Source: Candidatus Aenigmatarchaeota archaeon
Lineage (GTDB): Archaea; Aenigmatarchaeota; Aenigmatarchaeia; CG10238-14; SCSR01
Direction of reading: 5' to 3'
NCBI GenBank assembly: GCA_018920185.1
Contig: JAHLMT010000002.1
Span: 91,051 to 155,050, forward strand
DNA: 64,000 nt
Of the stretch, positions 2,002-40,155 are shown one piece after another. The first letter of the stretch is position 1. Each line of letters opens with the position of its first letter. The notes under the pieces are model-generated. The model was not told the DNA's origin and made no database searches. It saw only the letters and a list, made by a program, of their open reading frames with translations. Both the position numbers and the translations under genes were made by a program.

Positions 2002-3366
2002 ATGCCAGAGATTAAAGAAATCTCTGAGTCTATGCGTGAATGGGAAAGAGTTGCCGCCCATTCGCATATTTCTGGTCTGGGTTTAGATGGTTTGAAAGCA
2101 AAACCTATGGCAGCAGGTATGGTTGGACAGATAGAAGCCAGAGAGGCTGCAGGTCTAGTAGTCAGGTTAGTTAAAGAAGGAAAATTTGCCGGTAGGGCAG
2201 TTTTACTTGCAGGTCCTCCAGGAACAGGGAAGACAGCTATTGCAATGGGAATAGCAAAAGAATTGGGTAGAGATGTACCTTTTGTTCCATTAGCAGCCAG
2301 TGAAATATTCTCAACTGACATAAGGAAAACAGAATTTCTAACTCAGACTTTAAGAAAAGCTATTGGCGCAAGAATTCATGAAATGAGGAAAATATATGAA
2401 GGTGAGGTAAAGGAAATAAACATAGAAACAGCACAGCATCCTTACAATCCTTATCAAAAAATTCCTGTAGGTGCTATAATAAAAATTGCAACAAAAGATG
2501 AAAGCAAAAAATTAACAATGGACCAAAGCTTTGCTATGCAATTGATTCAACAAAATATAGAAACAGGAGATGTTGTTAACATCGATGTTGATGGTGGGAG
2601 AATTGTTAAAATAGGGAAAAGTAAAGAATCTGCAGAAGAAAAAAAGCTAGATTTAAGTGCAACCCAGCTTATAGATGTACCTAAAGGAAAAGTTCTGAAA
2701 GAGAAAGAATTTATTTATCCAGTTACTTTGCACGCTCTTGATGTGGCAAGTGCCAGGCAAGGCGAGGACATTTTCAGCATATTTTTCGGTGGAAGAGAAT
2801 CTAAAGAAATCGAACCTGAGGTTAGAAAACAAGTGGATGAGTATGTGAAATCATTAGTTCAAGAAGGAAGATGTGAACTATTACCTGGTGTTGTTTTTAT
2901 CGACGAGTGCAGCATGCTTGATATTGAAACATTTGCATTTCTTAATAGAGCTCTGGAGCAAGAGTTATCACCCATTATTATTTTTGCAACAAATCGAGGA
3001 TTTTCAACAATTAGAGGGACTGATATCAAAGCAGCACATGGTATGCCACTTGATCTAGTCGATAGGTTGTTGATAATAAATACCAAACCGTATGGAAAAG
3101 AAGACATTAGAAAAATCGTAGAGACAAGAGCGAAAGCTGAAAAGATTAAACTAACAGACGAAGCTTTAGAATATCTGACCGAAGTTGGTGCTAGAACTAG
3201 CTTAAGATATTCGATTCAGTTGCTTGCTCCTGCCTTTGAATTTGCAAAAGAGAATAATTCAGAAAAAATAGAGAAAGAACATATTATTTATGTTGAGAAA
3301 TTGTTTGTTGATGTCAAAAAGTCTGTTGAATATCTTAAGGAATATGAAAGTCATTTTTTGGCATGA
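2002..3366 (+). CDS. tip49: TIP49/RuvB-like AAA+ ATPase
   Basis: RVAAHSHISGLGL, GMVGQIEAREAAG, Walker A GPPGTGKT, Walker B FIDEC, ATNRG, HGMPLDLVDRL. Confidence 0.95.
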   Translation: MPEIKEISESMREWERVAAHSHISGLGLDGLKAKPMAAGMVGQIEAREAAGLVVRLVKEGKFAGRAVLLAGPPGTGKTAIAMGIAKELGRDVPFVPLAASEIFSTDIRKTEFLTQTLRKAIGARIHEMRKIYEGEVKEINIETAQHPYNPYQKIPVGAIIKIATKDESKKLTMDQSFAMQLIQQNIETGDVVNIDVDGGRIVKIGKSKESAEEKKLDLSATQLIDVPKGKVLKEKEFIYPVTLHALDVASARQGEDIFSIFFGGRESKEIEPEVRKQVDEYVKSLVQEGRCELLPGVVFIDECSMLDIETFAFLNRALEQELSPIIIFATNRGFSTIRGTDIKAAHGMPLDLVDRLLIINTKPYGKEDIRKIVETRAKAEKIKLTDEALEYLTEVGARTSLRYSIQLLAPAFEFAKENNSEKIEKEHIIYVEKLFVDVKKSVEYLKEYESHFLA

Positions 3367-14675: not shown

Positions 14676-14721
14676 CATTCGAATTCCCTCTTCAAATTCT
14701 TTATGTTATACGTATAACATT

Positions 14722-31921: not shown

Positions 31922-33007
31922 CTACACAGTTTTTATAATTTCCTTCTTTTTGCTTTTTAACTTCGTTAAATACTCAGAAGCCGCAATAAATGCTTTTGCA
32001 CCTTCACCAGCTGCAACTATCACTTGCTTTTCACTTATATCTGTACAATCGCCAGCAGCAAATATTCCAGAGACACTCGTGTGATTGTTTTTATCAATAA
32101 CTATTTCATCTCTGTCATTTAATTTCAACAAACCTTTGACAAAATCTGTGCTAGGTTTATACCCAACGTTAATAAAAACACCGTCTACACTTATCTTTCG
32201 CTCTTTGCCATCTTGAGAAATTCTAATACCTTTAACAATTTGATCACCAAAAATTTCTAATGTTTTAGTTTTGGTCAGAATCTCAACTTTCGGATGATTT
32301 CTAACAAAATCTGTTGAAGGTCCCAACTGTTTTATCTCATCTGCAATTTCAATTAGATACACCTTTGATGCTATGTTGACTAACTGAGAGGCAGCATCTA
32401 ACCCAGATCTACCACCGCCGATAACAGCAACAACTTTATCTTTGAATAATGGTGCATCACAATGTGCACAAAATGATACTCCTCTTCCTATGTAATCAAG
32501 TTCTCCTGGGATGTTCAAAGTTTTGTTAACTCTTCCAGTTGCAATTATCAAAGCTTTTGAGAAATATGTAGAAGAATCTGTCAGCACATTAAAGCCTTCT
32601 TTTCCAGCTTCAATTTTATTAACGGTTTCATATTTAACTTCTATGTCAAAACTTCTAAAATGTTCTTCAAATTTTTGTTCTAATTCAACACCTGTAATGT
32701 AGTGATAACCTAAGTAATTTTCTATTGGATATGTGTTGATTTTAGTCTGACCACCGATGTCTTTACTTATAACACAAAAATCTAACCTCTGCCTTGCAGC
32801 ATATATCCCAGCAGCTAATCCTGCAGGACCACAACCTATAATAATCAAATCATATTTATCTTTCACAGGCTTACTCGTTATTTCCTTCTTTTGTAATTTT
32901 GTCTGTTCTAAACTTCCTAATGTTTTCCAGTATCTAAAAGCGAATTTCATAAACTGGAAAAATAATTTAATTTTATACCCAAAAGTCTTTAACACCATAT
33001 AAAACAT
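31922..33007 (-). CDS. Thioredoxin reductase / AhpF-like flavoprotein with N-terminal extension
   Basis: GCGPAG, IENYLG, GVSFCAHCDA, GIFAAGD, KQVIVAAGEG. Confidence 0.88.
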   Translation of the reverse strand: MFYMVLKTFGYKIKLFFQFMKFAFRYWKTLGSLEQTKLQKKEITSKPVKDKYDLIIIGCGPAGLAAGIYAARQRLDFCVISKDIGGQTKINTYPIENYLGYHYITGVELEQKFEEHFRSFDIEVKYETVNKIEAGKEGFNVLTDSSTYFSKALIIATGRVNKTLNIPGELDYIGRGVSFCAHCDAPLFKDKVVAVIGGGRSGLDAASQLVNIASKVYLIEIADEIKQLGPSTDFVRNHPKVEILTKTKTLEIFGDQIVKGIRISQDGKERKISVDGVFINVGYKPSTDFVKGLLKLNDRDEIVIDKNNHTSVSGIFAAGDCTDISEKQVIVAAGEGAKAFIAASEYLTKLKSKKKEIIKTV

Positions 33008-33397: not shown

Positions 33398-33907
33398 CTA
33401 TCTTCTCTTTTTAATTACAACTTTTCCTGTGAAAAGTAAAATTAAAACCACAAATAGTACAATAGCTAAAATCCAACCAATTGCAGAAAAAATTAGAAGT
33501 GCGTTGTAACTTGTGTAACAAGCTGGATAATAGTTGCCCATCATCCTCGTCATCATAGGTATCATATACTTACCCATCATTCCCTGAAAGACGGTTTCAC
33601 ATCCCAACCAATTTTTTCCCATTGTAATGTGCATTTGTCTTAGACTCTCAGAGCCTTCACCACCCATCATAACATCCATCTGTTCATGTAATTCTTTATT
33701 ACCTACCATTCTGTCCATTACAGCATCTCCCAATTCTTCAAATTCGTGTTCAGAAATTTTATTGCAATCTAAATCGCTCGCCCGGCTAACATTTTGATTC
33801 GATATCATATGATTCATTATATTATCAACAGATTCAATTTCCATGTGAGCATATACAAAATTGACTAAGAATAGAATACTCGCAAATGTAATTAATATCT
33901 TTTTCAT
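33398..33907 (-). CDS. Met/His-rich exported protein with C-terminal TM (candidate copper-binding)
   Basis: Signal peptide ending AHM; EELGDAVMDRM...HEQMDVMMGGEGSESLRQMHITMG..WLGC; MMG repeats. Confidence 0.75.
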   Translation of the reverse strand: MKKILITFASILFLVNFVYAHMEIESVDNIMNHMISNQNVSRASDLDCNKISEHEFEELGDAVMDRMVGNKELHEQMDVMMGGEGSESLRQMHITMGKNWLGCETVFQGMMGKYMIPMMTRMMGNYYPACYTSYNALLIFSAIGWILAIVLFVVLILLFTGKVVIKKRR

Positions 33908-33935
33908 ACAATCAACTTTTGTTTTTTTTAACTAA

Positions 33936-33980
33936 TTATTGATGGTGTTTGCACTTTCTACTTCCGCAACATTTTGGCAT
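33936..33980 (-). CDS. Putative 14-aa Cys/His micropeptide MPKCCGSRKCKHHQ
   Basis: AGGAGGT 6 nt before ATG; starts 3 nt after upstream stop. Confidence 0.45.
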   Translation of the reverse strand: MPKCCGSRKCKHHQ

Positions 33981-33983
33981 ATA

Positions 33984-34655
33984 CTAACCTCCTAAACATT
34001 CCTTATATCTATCAGGATGATGACTCATGTGTTCTCTCCAAGCTCCATCTGTATATCCTGGTGGTGTTGTACATTTATCATTTAATTCAGTTGCAATAAA
34101 TTTTCTATAACCAACATATTTCTTGTACCATTGATACACTAGGAACGAAAAAACTACAATTAACACTATAAGAACTACGCCAAAAGTAATCTGCAACAAT
34201 ACTTTTCTATCTATATTGAATTTTACTCTATTTTTCTTCGCAAGATTTATCATACTAATTATACCTACTATGTTTGAAACTATACCAACTGCAAGTAAAA
34301 CTGGTTGATACTGTAATAGAAATACACCAACAGCTGACACACCAAGAATAGGCATTACATCAGTTACATGATGAACACAGCATGCTACCATTGATGTCAT
34401 GGATATACCTCCACATGCACCAGTTGTGCCTGTAGACATTTTCATAAAATTTCTGATATAAATAAAAAGACCAACCTGAACTCCAAATCCAATTACAAGT
34501 GGAGTCATCAAGTACCAGAACTCTACGAATCTACCAATAGCATAATTCAATCCTTGAAACAAACTAACAATTATCAAGTACAGAAAAATAAGCGATAAGC
34601 TTGATAAAATACCGTAAATAATAGACTTTCTCCAAATCTTAGTTTTTCTAACCAT
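33984..34655 (-). CDS. Membrane protein with CCxHH motif and C-terminal Cys/His/Met module
   Basis: SMVACCVHH; KCTTPPGYTDGAWREHMSHHPDRYKECL. Confidence 0.75.
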   Translation of the reverse strand: MVRKTKIWRKSIIYGILSSLSLIFLYLIIVSLFQGLNYAIGRFVEFWYLMTPLVIGFGVQVGLFIYIRNFMKMSTGTTGACGGISMTSMVACCVHHVTDVMPILGVSAVGVFLLQYQPVLLAVGIVSNIVGIISMINLAKKNRVKFNIDRKVLLQITFGVVLIVLIVVFSFLVYQWYKKYVGYRKFIATELNDKCTTPPGYTDGAWREHMSHHPDRYKECLGG

Positions 34656-34719
34656 TCTTACAACACTCTATCATAGCTTTTGCTATCTTTTTAAGTATCT
34701 GTTTAAATCTGAATCTCAT
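34648..34719 (-). CDS. Putative 23-aa micropeptide MRFRFKQILKKIAKAMIECCKNG
   Basis: ATGA overlap with upstream stop and 8-nt overlap with downstream start. Confidence 0.45.
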   Translation of the reverse strand: MRFRFKQILKKIAKAMIECCKNG

Positions 34720-35060
34720 CTATAAACACCTGACAATATCAAATAAACAATCAAAACTCCAAAAAGAATTACCAACGGCTTTATTAAAAGTAAGTTCTTG
34801 TTTTCAGTAGTTTTAACTCTTCTTTCTAGAAAATACATAAATCCTACCACCGAACCTCCCATAAGAATCGCAACAATACTCTGGGGAATGGCATATCCGA
34901 TTAATTTCATCACCAACAAACCTGACCATGTTGAAACAATAGTTGCGCAAATTGCACAAATCTCGAATTTAAAAATTCTCTTTATCAAATTTCTTAGAAC
35001 TAGCCATGTGAAATAAATTCCTACCATTGTTAGCAACACATAATAAATTACATCAACCAT
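34716..35060 (-). CDS. Small membrane protein with CxxC
   Basis: ICAICA, LMGGSVVG, four hydrophobic segments. Confidence 0.7.
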   Translation of the reverse strand: MVDVIYYVLLTMVGIYFTWLVLRNLIKRIFKFEICAICATIVSTWSGLLVMKLIGYAIPQSIVAILMGGSVVGFMYFLERRVKTTENKNLLLIKPLVILFGVLIVYLILSGVYR

Positions 35061-35570
35061 TTACATCACCAAATATAAAACTAACGAACTCGTAATGAGC
35101 GATAGAATAAAAATAAAAATAGACTGATAAGGCAGAAAATTTCTGTTTCTATTAAATTTTCTAAGAATCTCATGAAGTTTGAATGACGCGAAAGATACTC
35201 CAATTCCAATTAATGTGCCAAATAGAATCCTATCAATACCAAATATCTTGAAAGGATTTGGAGGACCAATTAATTTAGCAAAATAAAATGTTACAATTGT
35301 GAGGATAAAGAATATAATCAATACTATGACAGGTTGAAATGGGATATACTCCTTTCCCTTATTGTGTCTTTTAACCATATTGTTTATCCACAATCCAGTT
35401 GCTACTACCATCCCTCCGACAAATACACCAACAATAGAATCGTCAACACCGTACCATCTAGTAAATGCTACTGCTGCACCAGTTGCCGCTGTACACAAAG
35501 GACAATGTGCTAATACAGTTGAAATTAAAAAAATAAAGGAAAAAAGAAACGAAATAAAATAAAATTTCAT
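35061..35570 (-). CDS. Membrane protein with N-terminal HCPLC motif
   Basis: Signal peptide ending VLA-HCPLCT; GVDD, PFQ/PYQ motifs; GAGGTGA RBS. Confidence 0.75.
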   Translation of the reverse strand: MKFYFISFLFSFIFLISTVLAHCPLCTAATGAAVAFTRWYGVDDSIVGVFVGGMVVATGLWINNMVKRHNKGKEYIPFQPVIVLIIFFILTIVTFYFAKLIGPPNPFKIFGIDRILFGTLIGIGVSFASFKLHEILRKFNRNRNFLPYQSIFIFILSLITSSLVLYLVM

Positions 35571-35690: not shown

Positions 35691-36128
35691 TTAACCATGG
35701 TGGCTCCTCATATTGCTAAAATCTTGTGTTCTTATCACCCTTGCAGTTCCGTCAGAATCAAGAATTTCTATTATCATTTTTTCTGGACCATACATATGTA
35801 TGCAAGGCTGTACAGCCATATTGTGACGATAACGAAAATTTAACACACCATATTCAGCTGTCTTTATACCACCATCACATTCGGTAATTGGTGAGCCCAC
35901 GCAATTTCTATCATACACACTTATGCCTTCTATTCTTCCTGGTTTGACTTTTACATTTGTTATCTTACCTTCGAACACATTAAGATCTGATGGAATATCG
36001 TAACTTGTATACCCAGTTTTAGGTGCATATAGTTTGTAACCAAAGACTGTCATTAACCCTAGTAATAGAGTTATGATTGCTATACTTAATACCCAACCGC
36101 TAACTTTTATTTTAATCAATTTTATCAA
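35691..36128 (-). CDS. Membrane-anchored exported protein with Cys/His/Met motifs
   Basis: TM; DRNCVG...TECDGG...YRHNMAVQPCIHM; C-terminal MRSHHG. Confidence 0.7.
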   Translation of the reverse strand: MIKLIKIKVSGWVLSIAIITLLLGLMTVFGYKLYAPKTGYTSYDIPSDLNVFEGKITNVKVKPGRIEGISVYDRNCVGSPITECDGGIKTAEYGVLNFRYRHNMAVQPCIHMYGPEKMIIEILDSDGTARVIRTQDFSNMRSHHG

Positions 36129-36164
36129 AAATTAACTCAAGGAAATATCTTATAAACATTAAAG

Positions 36165-36178
36165 TGAAACTAGTTTCA
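36165..36178. promoter_or_regulatory. Perfect palindrome TGAAACTAGTTTCA (site 1), 8 bp upstream of minus-strand TATA TTTATAAG (36149-36156)
   Basis: Read directly; identical copy at 36641. Confidence 0.7.
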
Positions 36179-36664
36179 TTCAGTTTTTAGCAGCACCAGA
36201 TTACTCATTCCGCGTCTTCTTCGCTCAACTAATCCTTTAGTTTCTAACCTGTCTAATATCCTGCTTACTTTTACTTTTGAGAATCCGCTTACATTAATCA
36301 AATCATTCTGAAATGCAGAACCGTCATTTTTAGTCAACTCGTTGAATATCTTCTTTTCATCCTCGGACAAATCTTTAATAATTTTATTTAACTTTGCTTT
36401 AGAAATTGTTTGTGTTCTCTCTCCTTTAGGTTGGTTAAGAGCCAGATAACTTCCTATACCAGCAGATACTATTAGAATACCAAATCCCGCATAAGCTTGC
36501 ACAGGTATATGATTGACTAAAGTACAAGATGGTGACCCACATAACGCATGTTCCATACGTGCATACCCAAGGGAAATGGTTAACAAAATGACAAACATTA
36601 TAATGGATATACCAATTATTGACATACCAAGATAGTTTGTTGAAACTAGTTTCATATACGACAA
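36176..36664 (-). CDS. Two-TM membrane-anchored winged-HTH regulator (probable start ATG 36655)
   Basis: Two TMs around loop MEHALCGSPSCTLVNH; C-terminal LSEDEKKI..L...G...QNDL...GFSKVKVSRILDRLE.KGLVERRRRGMSN. Confidence 0.85.
   Translation of the reverse strand: MSYMKLVSTNYLGMSIIGISIIMFVILLTISLGYARMEHALCGSPSCTLVNHIPVQAYAGFGILIVSAGIGSYLALNQPKGERTQTISKAKLNKIIKDLSEDEKKIFNELTKNDGSAFQNDLINVSGFSKVKVSRILDRLETKGLVERRRRGMSNLVLLKTE
36641..36654. promoter_or_regulatory. Perfect palindrome TGAAACTAGTTTCA (site 2) overlapping the regulator's probable start
   Basis: Identical to site 1; minus-strand TTAAATA box at about 36677-36683. Confidence 0.7.
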
Positions 36665-36680
36665 TTCAAATTTTGAGTAT

Positions 36681-38834
36681 TTAAGTGTTAGCTATTGGCG
36701 GTTTGTATCTATTTAGAAGCATAGCATTTCCTACTACAGAAATTGAGCTAGTAGCCATAGCCATAGCGGCATAAATAGGATTCAACAAAATACCAAAGAA
36801 GGGATATAGTAATCCTGCAGCTACTGGAATCAATGCCACATTGTAAAAGAATGCCCAGAAAAGATTCTGTTTCATCTTGTTCACAGTTGCTTTGCTCAAA
36901 TCAATCGCAGTTACAACATCACGCAAATCATTCTTAATCAGCACTATCCCGCCAGTTTCTTTTGCAATATCTGTTCCTGCACCTATAGCGATACCAACAT
37001 CGGCTTGTGCCAACATAGGTGCGTCATTAATACCGTCACCACATGCTGCAACAATTTCTCCTCTTTCCTGTAATTCTTTCACTTTCTTTGCTTTGTCCTG
37101 AGGTAGTACCTGTGCCATTATCTTATCTTCATCAATTCCAATTTGCGATGCAATTGCTTTAGCAGTTCTCTCGTTATCACCAGTAATCATCCAGACTTCT
37201 TTGCCCATTCTCTTTAATTCTTTAACAGCTTCTTTTGAAAATTCTTTTAATGTGTCAGCAATTGCAATCAATCCAACAACTTTTTTATTGTAAACAACTA
37301 TCACAACAGTTTTACCCTCGCTTTCTAGTTTTTGAATTTGTTCTTCAAGATTTTCTGTTTGTATGTTGTTGTCTTTCATGAGTATTCTGTTCCCAACTAA
37401 GACAGTTCTATTCTGATAAGTTGCTTTAATTCCTTTTCCGGCAACAGTTTCGTACGATTTCCCTTCACGCAATGTTAGTTTCATTTCCCTAGCTTTTTTA
37501 ATTATAGCCTGTCCTAACGGGTGTTCCGACCCTTTTTCAGCTAGTGCAGCCAACTCAAGTACATCCTTTTCTGTAGAACCTATTGGAATAACATCAGTAA
37601 CAGAAGGTTCCCCTTTTGTCAATGTTCCGGTCTTGTCAAAAATAATCGATGTTATCTTATGTGTTTTCTCTAAATACTCACCGCTTTTAATTAAAATTCC
37701 ATTCTGCGCACCTTTACCTGCGCCAATCATTATTGCAGACGGTGTAGCGATTCCTAAAGCACATGGACACGCAATTATTAGAACAGAAATCAAGATTGTC
37801 AATGCCAACGGGAATGATAATCCACCCACAAAATACCATAGGATAAATGAACCTATAGCAATCAATATAACAACAGGAACAAAATAAGCTGATACCAAAT
37901 CAGCCATCCTTTGCATGGGTGCTCTACTAGCTATCGCTTCCTGTACCATTTTAACTATTTGTGATAATGTCATCTCAGCTCCAACTCTCGTCGCTTTTAC
38001 TTTCAACAAACCACTTTTGTTAATCGTCGCGCCGATAACCTCGTCACCAACCTTCTTACCAACAGGTATTGACTCACCTGTAATCATTGATTCATCAATC
38101 GAAGAATGACCTTCTACAATAACTCCATCAACAGCTATCTTTTCACCTGGTTTCACAATGAAAATATCACCAACTTTAACTTGTTCAATAGGAATTTGCT
38201 GTTCTTTTCCGTCTCTGATAACAGTTGCTAACTTTGGTTGTAAGTCAATCAGTTTTCTGATAGCTTGCGATGCCCTTCCCTTTACCAAATGTTCAAAATA
38301 TTTTCCAAGTAGAATGAAACCAATAATCAAACCAGATTCTGTAAAATATACTTCTGGTCCGCCAGTTGTAACTTTTGGAAATATCTGTGGCCATAGAATT
38401 CCTTGGAATGTGTAAATAGTACTGTAAATCCATGCGGCTGATGTACCGATGGCGATTAAACTATCCATGTTAGCTTGCTTAGCTTTTATTGCATCAAGAG
38501 TTCCTCTGTAAAACCTCCACCCGCCAATAAACTGCACAGGAGTTGCTAAGAAAAATAGCCAAATGTAGTTAGGTATGTCAAACCATGAAATTTTGTAGAT
38601 ATATTCAAATATTGCTGTAAGTGCTCCCAAACTCAGGCTGAATATTGTGATGTATTTAAGTTTTTTAATTTCTTTTTGTGGTTTTAGGAAAGTATCCAGA
38701 CAATTGTTGCTACAGAAATAATATTTCATTCCATCTTGTTCAGCTTTAAATGGAGTCTTATTTTCATCAACATACATCCCACAGACAATATCTTTTGCCA
38801 CAGACTCTCTCCTCTTACAATTTAACATTCGCAA
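36681..38834 (-). CDS. copA: Cu(I)-translocating P1B ATPase with N-terminal YHS/TRASH domain (probable start GTG 38801)
   Basis: KDIVCGM...[44 protein letters not shown]. Confidence 0.95.
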
Positions 38835-38857: not shown

Positions 38858-39364
38858 CTATCTCAAGCTAGCAAACTTGATTATTATTTCATCACCATCT
38901 TTTATAGTATACTTTTCAAATTCCTCGTTCTCTTTACCATTAACAAACATTCTCAAACTACCGTTACAATAATCAAAAATACATTCACTATCAAATCTCT
39001 TACCCCAGACATCATTAATAAAATATCCGATTGTTAATGTCTCTGGTTTTGCAGAAGGATTTAGATTTTCGATATGCAATTTACCTGTTGAATCATGCGT
39101 GTGGATAGGTGACATGTGCATACCACTTATATGATTGTCAATATTATTACCTGTAGTTATCCCCACACCAGCAGGTATCGGAATTTGTTTGCCATCAATT
39201 AGAATTGTCAATTTTGCATGCCAATGTATATTCTTTGTAAGTAAACTTACATTACCAGTTCTAGAAACAGCAAACAAAGAGTATAAACCGAGTATCAAGC
39301 CAATAGCACCAATTATTGTTACAAAAGTCAGTATCAAAGTTTCATTTCTTTTAGACCCGATCAT
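38858..39364 (-). CDS. Membrane-anchored His-rich exported protein
   Basis: TM; [38 protein letters not shown]. Confidence 0.75.
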
Positions 39365-40155
39365 GTTACATTGACTACCTTATTCTGGGTTAAATCCTTA
39401 TAGGTTCCCATTTGTTCTGTTGCTCTAAACACGTACCAGCCGTCGCTTTCAACTGTGCCCACTTGATTCCATATCCGAGTTAAAGCTGGATATACCGAAA
39501 TATCTGGTGAAAGAATTATAGTAGGAACTTTTGTTATATTATACTTCTTCAATAAATCCTTTCCATTAGAGGAGGATATATCGTAAGTTAACGATTTGTC
39601 TATATAGACCCCAAATCTCGGAAGTATTTGCATATGATTTTCGACGTTATAACATTCTGTGCAGGAATTGTCTGTTATCTTGATTACTTGAACTAGCCCA
39701 ACAACATTTTTTGTCTCCAGACTATAATATGGTGGATACCCACTCACAATTACAACATTTCCAACAAATTCAGCGCCTATATTGTTCCATAAAGGTATCA
39801 CATCATCCTGAAGTGTTTCACCTGTAATTACTAAAGCTGGCAGAACTTTGATATTATTCTTTGATATAAGCTGTTGTGCTTCCTTATTTCCGTATGTGAG
39901 ATTCTTTTCTGTGAGTACTTTCACATTTGTTTGTCTTTTAATAAACGATACAATATTGTTCATATCAAAGCAATTATCACAATCAGTAGTAATTAGAGTC
40001 AGATGTAAGTTTGCTGGTCTTTCCTTTTCAGATTTCAGAGGAGAAATAATTTTACTGGTAATAAATATATTCACACCATACAAAACAATCAGAGCTACTA
40101 TTAGCCCTAAAAATACATTCCTGTATAATCTGTTTTCATCTCTAAGTCTTCTCAA
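39361..40155 (-). CDS. Membrane-anchored protein with two thioredoxin-like CxxC domains
   Basis: CDNCFD...IKVLPAL and CTECYN...ITKVPTI. Confidence 0.75.
   Translation of the reverse strand: MRRLRDENRLYRNVFLGLIVALIVLYGVNIFITSKIISPLKSEKERPANLHLTLITTDCDNCFDMNNIVSFIKRQTNVKVLTEKNLTYGNKEAQQLISKNNIKVLPALVITGETLQDDVIPLWNNIGAEFVGNVVIVSGYPPYYSLETKNVVGLVQVIKITDNSCTECYNVENHMQILPRFGVYIDKSLTYDISSSNGKDLLKKYNITKVPTIILSPDISVYPALTRIWNQVGTVESDGWYVFRATEQMGTYKDLTQNKVVNVT

Follow-up and report, generated by a model that had tools for sequence, protein, structure and literature searches.

Transcription factors that carry a DNA-binding domain and membrane helices in the same polypeptide, the transmembrane transcription regulators (TTRs), are present in 367 of 404 archaeal species according to a census, in which the archaeal membrane-bound one-component regulators known so far are those controlling motility and pilin genes (PMC10269533). 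A soluble factor, CopR of Pyrococcus furiosus (PF0739), is reported to repress its own gene and to activate copA from a site upstream of that of the TATA-binding protein and transcription factor B (TBP/TFB) (PMC7830388). The locus compared here with these systems lies in a stretch of 64,000 nucleotides (the window) from a Candidatus Aenigmatarchaeota archaeon (GenBank assembly GCA_018920185.1, contig JAHLMT010000002.1, positions 91,051 to 155,050 of the forward strand), where the gene of a putative membrane-anchored winged-helix (wHTH) regulator is found directly behind copA and is accompanied by two identical copies of the perfect 14-bp palindrome TGAAACTAGTTTCA. To our knowledge, almost no gene regulation has been characterised in the DPANN archaea, which are uncultivated and have tiny genomes. 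A sequence-only reading of the window had proposed a one-component transmembrane copper or redox sensor that represses itself and activates the next operon. The comparative analysis presented below supports well a candidate one-component envelope copper or thiol sensor, the operator of which can be read from the sequence. To the core of this reading, i.e., a membrane-tethered winged-helix factor, the palindrome as its operator and a regulon of envelope metal and thiol homeostasis, whichever the direction of control, we assign a probability of about 0.6.

The source genome (643 kb, 92.5% complete; its relatives are labelled Candidatus Aenigmatarchaeota and other DPANN archaea) contains TGAAACTAGTTTCA exactly twice in its 643,152 bases, both copies being in the window (36165-36178 and 36641-36654). 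A genome-wide scan returned no one-mismatch sites and six two-mismatch sites, the latter being at the background of the controls; for 40 palindromes made from permuted half-sites the means were 0 exact, 0.3 one-mismatch and 4.1 two-mismatch sites, and no wider regulon of TGAAACTAGTTTCA was found in the source genome. A shuffle test allowing two mismatches was uninformative, with at least two matches in 22 of 100 shuffles, and it is the stricter genome counts that are decisive. Perfect 14-bp palindromes number 71 in the genome and only three sequences recur. The only other non-trivial multi-copy palindrome is the 16-bp TGTTATACGTATAACA, with five genome copies (window 14704-14719, C1:44819, C1:77019, C1:160726 and C2:63710), which may be a candidate site of another regulator. 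Both copies of TGAAACTAGTTTCA stand where the sequence-only reading had placed them, and its other statements on position hold as well.

The copy at 36641-36654 covers the start of the regulator gene (36176-36655, minus strand, 159 aa; an alternative TTG start lies at 36664). The palindrome, which as such has no strand, occupies bases 2-15 of the open reading frame (ORF), that is +2 to +15 from the A of the ATG, and the ORF opens with ATGAAACTAGTTTCA (A followed by TGAAACTAGTTTCA), encoding MKLVS on the minus strand. The TATA-like TTAAATAC of the regulator promoter (36677-36684, minus strand) spans -29 to -22 and is separated from the ATG by 21 nt. When the regions preceding 474 long ORFs of the source genome are compared, TATA-like hexamers cluster sharply between -31 and -27 relative to the ATG (mode -29), with an A-rich stretch immediately before this peak, and many genes should therefore be leaderless. 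The TATA box of the regulator begins exactly at this mode, in line with the earlier suggestion of a probably leaderless start. The first three bases of the second copy (36165-36178, likewise without strand) are the TGA stop codon of the regulator; the TATA box TTTATAAG of the downstream operon lies 8 nt past this copy (36149-36156, minus strand), with the same spacing in related loci, and at +19 to +23 after the palindrome there is a third half-site position (36142-36146, minus strand), where ATTTC is found here and GTTTC in most relatives. The region is extremely compact, the regulator TATA box overlapping the copA stop codon (36681-36683), and the TGA of the palindrome doubles as the regulator stop codon in the window and in three loci of other genera (L017, L021, L026).

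Conservation of the downstream copy was followed in two sets of loci (L numbers denote loci and G numbers genomes). In the order-level set, comprising the 30 best regulator loci with 1.5 kb on each side, the palindrome is located downstream of the regulator in 22 loci (21 exact, one with a single mismatch) and upstream of the regulator gene in none. In the second set, a palindrome that is exact or deviates at one position lies no more than 3 kb from the regulator in 68 of 80 loci of named public genomes; nearly all of these sites follow the stop codon, mostly at a distance of up to approximately 110 nt. The genomes of this set are labelled Aenigmatarchaeota, Woesearchaeota, Pacearchaeota, Nanoarchaeota, Altiarchaeota, Micrarchaeota, Parvarchaeota, Iainarchaeum and Theionarchaea, with two Methanosarcinales. 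The sequence-only reading, which would have fallen had the palindrome been absent beside orthologous regulators, thus stands on this point both in the order and across DPANN. Of the 41 genomes of the order in which an orthologue was detected at E ≤ 1e-15, 40 contain the palindrome exactly or with one mismatch, compared to 30 of the 77 other genomes (tallied by eye from two tables), and the reversed control pattern occurs in 24 of 118; since related genomes are not independent, these tallies are descriptive counts and not a test.

The distance between the palindrome and the stop codon varies from 0 to approximately 500 nt, and the two overlap in four of the 30 loci, while the TATA box follows the palindrome at a fixed 8-9 nt across related loci. 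This is seen in L006-L008, where the palindrome is 292-484 nt away from the stop codon, behind three different and unrelated inserted ORFs (one of which we take, by its motifs, to be cytidine-deaminase-like), yet 8-9 nt from the TATA box of the target gene. That the downstream copy is a conserved promoter element of the next operon, belonging to the target gene rather than to the end of the regulator, is strongly supported by these sequence comparisons.

Identical 14-bp direct copies placed exactly at both ends of a 476-bp unit could also be what insertion of the regulator as a mobile cassette leaves behind, either as a target-site duplication or as recombination sites, an outcome which the sequence-only reading had itself named as fatal to its proposal. 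The identity, however, stops at the 14 bp. Only the downstream copy is present in 16 of the 22 loci having the element (L009 onward; in two of them the regulator start is at the locus edge), and in L006-L008 that copy stays by the target TATA box in spite of the unrelated genes inserted after the regulator. Furthermore, the order copA-regulator-target is syntenic across families, and no recombinase or transposase was detected among the neighbouring ORFs in general Pfam and NCBIfam scans. The cassette explanation was rejected on these comparative grounds and has, in our judgement, hardly any probability left.

Action at the RNA level, with a hairpin terminator after the regulator or a 14-bp panhandle between the 5' and 3' ends of the mRNA hiding the leaderless start, would be compatible with the pairing of both copies in the minimum-free-energy fold of a 541-nt transcript model and with the downstream copy abutting or overlapping the stop codon in many loci. 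Shuffling the sequence nevertheless gives folds of equal or greater stability in 81 of 100 cases (z = +0.93), and it is the sequence that is conserved and not the pairing, no compensatory changes having been seen. The spacing is fixed relative to the TATA box of the next gene and variable relative to the stop codon, some loci have the palindrome upstream of genes on both strands, and a panhandle is impossible in most orthologues because they have one copy only. Both the panhandle and the terminator were rejected for these reasons, and we consider action of this kind highly improbable.

The palindrome is part of a larger promoter arrangement. Among 100 distinct sites, GTTTC begins exactly at +19 after the palindrome in 56 and at +18 or +20 in 10 more, whereas at any other offset up to 65 nt it occurs at most three times. 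Of 371 genomes of the phylum, 75, belonging to 48 of 170 genera, contain the exact pattern palindrome-N18-GTTTC, compared to zero occurrences of the control pattern in every genome, and generic promoters of the source genome display no G/C preference at the position of the third half-site. In many loci 38 nt separate the palindrome from the start codon of the next gene, so that on a leaderless transcript the palindrome would extend from -52 to -39, the TATA box from approximately -29 to -23 and GTTTC from -20 to -16. In the TFB recognition element (BRE) region, the target promoters are poorer in A than generic promoters of the source genome. Where the palindrome deviates, it mostly does so at the centre, where CA or TG occasionally replaces TA, or at its outermost base; other positions of the arms are altered singly and sporadically. 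The placement just upstream of BRE/TATA, which the sequence-only reading had pointed out, is confirmed, but the conserved third half-site that follows the TATA box ahead of the start had been overlooked. In L131 (approximately 2935-2948, plus strand), G129 (C6:132373-132432), G184 (C20:19273-19332) and G248 (C1:779814-779873) a single palindrome has a TATA box and GTTTC on both sides at the same spacing, and one operator would therefore serve two divergent promoters. In L131 the regulator gene itself is behind such a composite promoter.

The copy over the start codon has a different history. It is present in six of the 30 loci (L003-L008; protein identity 62-100%), five times exactly and once with a single mismatch, and it is accompanied in these loci by the conserved promoter TTAAATACTC and spacer. 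Where pairs of the six genes use codons for the same amino acid, third positions are identical in 55 of 60 cases at codons 2-5, compared to 287 of 622 at codons 6-70 and 228 of 474 at codons 100-155. The DNA itself is thus constrained at codons 2-5, since synonymous positions are held there. More distant orthologues have other N-termini and do not contain the site. By these comparisons, the start-codon copy appears to be a younger, genus-level operator separate from the ancient downstream one. The sequence-only reading had described the regulator as bracketed by its palindromes; both copies are genuine, but their pairing is incidental, being that of one ancient and one genus-level operator in a very compact genome. 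As judged from the positions, the site overlaps the presumed leaderless start downstream of the TATA box, and a protein bound at +2 to +15 of a leaderless transcript must block RNA polymerase, from which negative autoregulation would follow.

The regulator is organised as a first transmembrane (TM) segment (approximately residues 6-38), a loop containing C39-x4-C44, a second TM segment (52-73), a flexible linker and a wHTH domain (86-156), the two hydrophobic helices enclosing MEHALCGSPSCTLVNH. An AlphaFold model based on 67 aligned homologues (mean predicted local distance difference test, pLDDT, 85.5) has long helices at 6-38 and 52-73 connected by a short loop, a linker that is disordered (pLDDT below 50 for residues 78-83) and a canonical winged helix with which the protein ends (strands 143-148 and 151-156). 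According to this model, a wHTH domain and two membrane helices reside in one polypeptide, as in the definition of TTRs. The chain is strongly basic behind helix 2 but not in the loop, for which reason the loop probably faces outward. Pfam matches fall within residues 98-159 and comprise DUF7343, an archaeal winged-helix domain (49.1 bits against a cut-off of 27.6; residues 100-159), and MarR_2 (32.1 bits against 27). The helix-turn-helix (HTH) domain of TrmB (PF01978) also exceeds its threshold (27.6 bits against 25.6), while MarR (PF01047; 22.9 bits against 24.6) and the NCBIfam model HTH_metalloreg of the ArsR/SmtB type (21.7 bits against 55) remain below theirs, and no YHS or TRASH domain was matched in Pfam at E ≤ 0.01. 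Model and domain matches agree with the earlier description of a membrane-anchored wHTH protein with two TM segments. DUF7343 is precomputed for nearly all of the regulator homologues listed, and relatives are labelled 'uncharacterized membrane protein' by JGI.

Both cysteines, C39 and C44, are conserved without exception in the 113 homologues with lengths of 150-185 aa, of which 98% have P51 and 74% H36. Little or no variation is seen in the recognition helix SKVKVSRILDxLE and the wing ERRRRGMxN, with overall identity to the query going down to approximately 35%. Searches against solved structures gave a CodY wHTH as the best sequence match (E-value 0.026), and Foldseek of the model returned only generic winged helices of MarR, ArsR or CodY, all with E above 0.001. 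A longer family with the same type of winged helix (approximately 290-330 aa; E 1e-7 to 1e-13) is represented by G000:C2:21553-21888 and by ORFs of approximately 300 aa in most genomes of the order, and may consist of paralogous membrane regulators.

A homodimer was predicted with a score of 0.69, the best control reaching 0.00; three runs share at least 76% of the contacts and the pLDDT of the partners is at least 86. In the calibration of the prediction tool, 20 of 30 proteins with a solved homodimer structure attained this mark, as did one of 23 solved as single chains. The predicted interface is formed by residues 16-35 and 51-64, i.e., by the membrane helices, through which the regulator would thus probably dimerise.

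That the regulator itself binds the palindrome we infer from the invariance of both, as its DNA-reading residues and the palindrome are equally conserved. It could instead be the operator of a different, unlinked factor, with the membrane wHTH protein having other targets or no role in transcription at all. In favour of this is G024, which contains a perfect composite promoter and only a weak protein match (E 3e-8; the genome is 82% complete). Against it stand the tight physical linkage of gene and site across phyla (the 68 of 80 loci), the presence of a site in 40 of 41 genomes with an orthologue, the shared invariance of the DNA-reading residues and the site, and the second, genus-level copy over the start of the regulator's own gene. 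We find another factor very unlikely, and proceed with the regulator as the protein to which the palindrome would belong.

The families of the genes behind the palindrome bear on what is regulated. First ORFs behind the site were collected in 80 named loci by a crude rule, taking the first ATG, GTG or TTG giving at least 45 aa. The 49 first ORFs so obtained comprised, by Pfam, HMA (11), DsbA-like (three) and FtrD-like (two) proteins and one each of DUF411, PCYCGC, AhpC/TSA, a methyltransferase, the regulator itself (DUF7343) and, below the cut-off, DUF2116; no Pfam family was found for 27 of the 49. Among the second ORFs (the 20 longest of 45 were scanned) HMA-DsbD_2 proteins were found four times, in three cases with an added cupredoxin-like domain; the others included a DsbD_TM protein, an HMA P-type ATPase, DUF411, DsbA-like and Temptin_C proteins and an ArsR-type HTH protein. 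Loci of the Woesearchaeota type have large fusions of unusual architecture behind the palindrome promoter (L071, L099, L107, L109, L130, L131, L137), mostly HMA-DsbD_2 and several with an additional cupredoxin-like domain, L137 being HMA plus cupredoxin-like only. The copA gene of the window (36681-38834, minus strand), directly upstream of the regulator, encodes a copper-type P1B ATPase with an N-terminal YHS domain; the assignment made by the sequence-only reading is backed by a score of 612 bits with the copper P-type ATPase subfamily model of NCBIfam, TIGR01511 (cut-off 397), by a CPC motif in the translation and by the Pfam matches E1-E2_ATPase, Hydrolase and YHS. In 15 of 30 loci a copA gene immediately precedes the regulator gene, and in two others it comes after it. 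From the families behind the palindrome together with the adjacency of copA, the regulon would therefore consist of envelope metal handling and thiol-disulfide exchange. This is the combination that copper stress demands.

In the window the first target gene (35691-36119, minus strand) encodes a membrane-anchored protein of 142 aa. The start codon taken for it is the TTG at 36119, to which an ATG corresponds in the alignment with L005 (a further TTG is at 36128), and with this conserved start the target transcript would have a short leader. The protein is modelled as a small beta-barrel (pLDDT 82); three Cys, one His and one Met are invariant in it, and its C-terminal tail reads HHG. Neither Pfam nor NCBIfam places it in a family, and the protein atlas gave no usable match; Foldseek of the model against the PDB gave nothing at E ≤ 0.001, the top rows being GFP-like barrels with TM-scores of approximately 0.15, and VIA-align gave generic small beta-barrels (best Z 6.2, root-mean-square deviation 3.6 Å over 75 residues), which is uninformative. 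Judging by its conserved residues, the 142-aa Cys/His/Met protein is a candidate for a new envelope metal-binding protein. Further genes on the same strand (33398-35570) probably belong to the same operon: membrane proteins with CPLC (35061-35570, minus strand) and CAIC (34716-35060, minus strand), both syntenic behind the first target gene in related loci, and, as seen from the translations, a membrane protein with CC/HH motifs (33984-34655, minus strand) and a Met/His-rich exported protein (33398-33907, minus strand). None of these had Pfam or NCBIfam family matches. At 38858-40155 and 31922-33007 (both minus strand) the island also encodes a membrane-anchored thioredoxin-like protein, a His-rich 168-aa protein upstream of copA and a thioredoxin-reductase-like flavoprotein with an N-terminal extension, all without the palindrome.

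We envisage the regulator as a one-component membrane-tethered transcription factor whose two TM helices would hold an outward CX4C loop and whose flexible linker would join the membrane hairpin to a cytoplasmic winged helix. Dimerisation through the membrane helices would bring two such loops together, and the two winged helices of the dimer would bind the half-sites of TGAAACTAGTTTCA. On the outer side of the membrane the cysteines would sense either a thiophilic metal, Cu(I) being the most probable one, or disulfide stress brought about by copper, and this signal could be relayed by a changed packing of the helices in the dimer. At the target promoter the palindrome, just upstream of the BRE/TATA of the next operon, would act together with the third half-site GTTTC (ATTTC in the window).

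For the outcome at the target promoter we tentatively favour signal-dependent binding that would activate from the upstream site, by analogy with CopR of Pyrococcus, and put its chances close to even. The perfect site, at -52 to -39 and just upstream of the BRE, is where archaeal activators act. The less A-rich BRE region of the targets points the same way, as promoters that depend on an activator tend to have a weak BRE. Additional contacts downstream of the TATA box are reported to be known for Ptr2 and BarR, which are activators (PMC7830388). The same protein and operator might instead be arranged as a metal-released repressor, metal or oxidation derepressing both the operon and the regulator gene; this we hold to be quite possible, though short of an even chance. 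The unliganded dimer would then occupy the strong upstream palindrome and, cooperatively, a weak second site with the TATA box as its degenerate left half (TATAAG) and the conserved GTTTC(A/T) as the other half, and would thereby exclude TBP/TFB. For such a repressor speaks the constant 18-nt spacing of the third half-site, which places it in the interval from TATA box to start on which archaeal repressors act, as does the featurelessness of generic promoters at this position. It is also parsimonious with regard to the regulator behind a composite promoter in L131 and the shared divergent promoters in L131, G129, G184 and G248, as under derepression autoregulation is negative in every arrangement, as required at +2 to +15 in the window. 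The nearest structural neighbours of the wHTH domain (MarR, ArsR, CadC and CodY) are mostly ligand-released repressors, although these matches are weak (E above 0.001). On the other hand, the perfect site is outside the core promoter and a mere half-site inside it, the reverse of what a pure repressor needs; the two putative sites are 24 bp apart from centre to centre, which is not a whole number of helical turns; and the BRE region of the targets is the less A-rich one. An outcome other than activation or derepression seems unlikely. The one-component regulator of the sequence-only reading is accordingly retained as regards the membrane-anchored wHTH, the conserved promoter-linked palindrome and the copper/thiol context, but not as regards its confidence in activation, since the third half-site fits repression equally well.

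A bolder version, which we consider doubtful, would make of the family an ancient DPANN-wide membrane switch, in which two CX4C loops on the outer side of a four-helix bundle might form a four-cysteine site reading Cu(I) or disulfide stress in the envelope and directly reposition the two cytoplasmic winged helices on an operator kept letter-perfect in several archaeal phyla. Tethering would dock the promoters at the membrane, as suggested by the membrane and exported proteins encoded on leaderless mRNAs by the controlled genes, and would couple sensing, transcription and membrane insertion in cells that possess very few further regulators.

Several points weigh against the reading of the regulator as a copper or thiol sensor acting through the palindrome. 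Binding by the regulator rather than by some other factor would follow from co-location and co-conservation, which kinship among the genomes, or a horizontally moving cassette, would inflate. The membrane topology should be as described above according to the model and the charge distribution. No palindrome was seen in the examined flank of eight of the 30 and 12 of the 80 loci; three of the eight order loci have less than 600 nt of downstream DNA, and sites are found elsewhere in at least four of their genomes (G050, G082, G021, G023). In the window the third half-site is ATTTC instead of GTTTC. There is no palindrome at copA itself in the source genome, and the neighbouring pump is for this reason not obviously under the control of the regulator. 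HMA, DsbD-like and DsbA-like proteins would fit Hg, Ag, Cd or pure disulfide stress as well. Finally, one metatranscriptome run (5% of sampled words) yielded a single 183-nt contig on the window, inside copA (37098-37277), and none on the regulator or the target gene, contigs of this kind being unable to show transcript starts.

In spite of these points, a transcription factor, its putative exact DNA site, a promoter grammar and a regulon could be read from sequence alone in many lineages, and every part of it is consequently testable with synthetic protein and short DNA. If true, the regulator would be the first described archaeal metal/thiol sensor of the membrane-hairpin type and a rare case of a membrane-bound regulator with a known operator. 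It would also provide a handle on unannotated envelope proteins, including the 142-aa beta-barrel protein, as candidate copper-handling factors.

How the regulator relates to described families depends on whether domains or architectures are compared. It is a DUF7343 member, MarR-like by domain, without the architecture of MarR, TrmB, ArsR/SmtB or CopR. With ArsR/SmtB and MarR proteins it has in common the winged-helix fold and, as proposed here, would also share binding as a dimer to palindromes, the cysteine-based metal or redox sensing known for some of them and their frequent negative autoregulation. Those proteins, however, are soluble and dimerise via helices flanking the wHTH, in the MarR family the N- and C-terminal ones, whereas the regulator ends at the wing, has a linker and a membrane hairpin before the wHTH, and is predicted to dimerise through this hairpin. 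Members of the TrmB family consist of an N-terminal wHTH, a coiled coil and a C-terminal sugar-binding domain; the wHTH of the regulator is C-terminal and nothing follows it. Bacterial regulators of the ToxR/CadC type likewise are one-component proteins across the membrane with a winged helix acting directly on the promoter. They begin with a winged helix of the OmpR type, followed by a single membrane helix and a folded sensor domain in the periplasm, whereas in the regulator the order is reversed and the putative sensor is an 18-residue loop.

CopR, known from P. furiosus and by homologues from Sulfolobus and Halobacterium, is similarly encoded beside copA and thought to sense copper, but it is described as a soluble Lrp-type protein with a TRASH metal domain, which forms octamers, wraps DNA and recognises a weakly conserved semi-palindrome (PMC7830388). 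The regulator, in contrast, has no TRASH/YHS match, is membrane-anchored and, by prediction, probably dimeric, and its putative site is perfect, invariant and 14 bp long. Closest in overall plan is the TTR class, which likewise joins a DNA-binding domain and membrane helices in one polypeptide and is thought to regulate from the membrane; the main-text passages of the census contain no mention of MarR/TrmB-type members, DPANN or copper, and its supplements may list the family (PMC10269533). In the literature searched, neither DUF7343 nor the palindrome motif was mentioned, and nothing relevant was found on copper regulation in Aenigmarchaeota or on operator palindromes in DPANN. The characterised archaeal TTRs are reportedly ArnR and ArnR1 of Sulfolobus acidocaldarius, ArnR being said to control motility genes. 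In ArnR the HTH comes first and the membrane helices last. In the regulator, by comparison, the membrane hairpin is N-terminal and carries a CX4C loop, and the putative operator can be read directly from the sequence.

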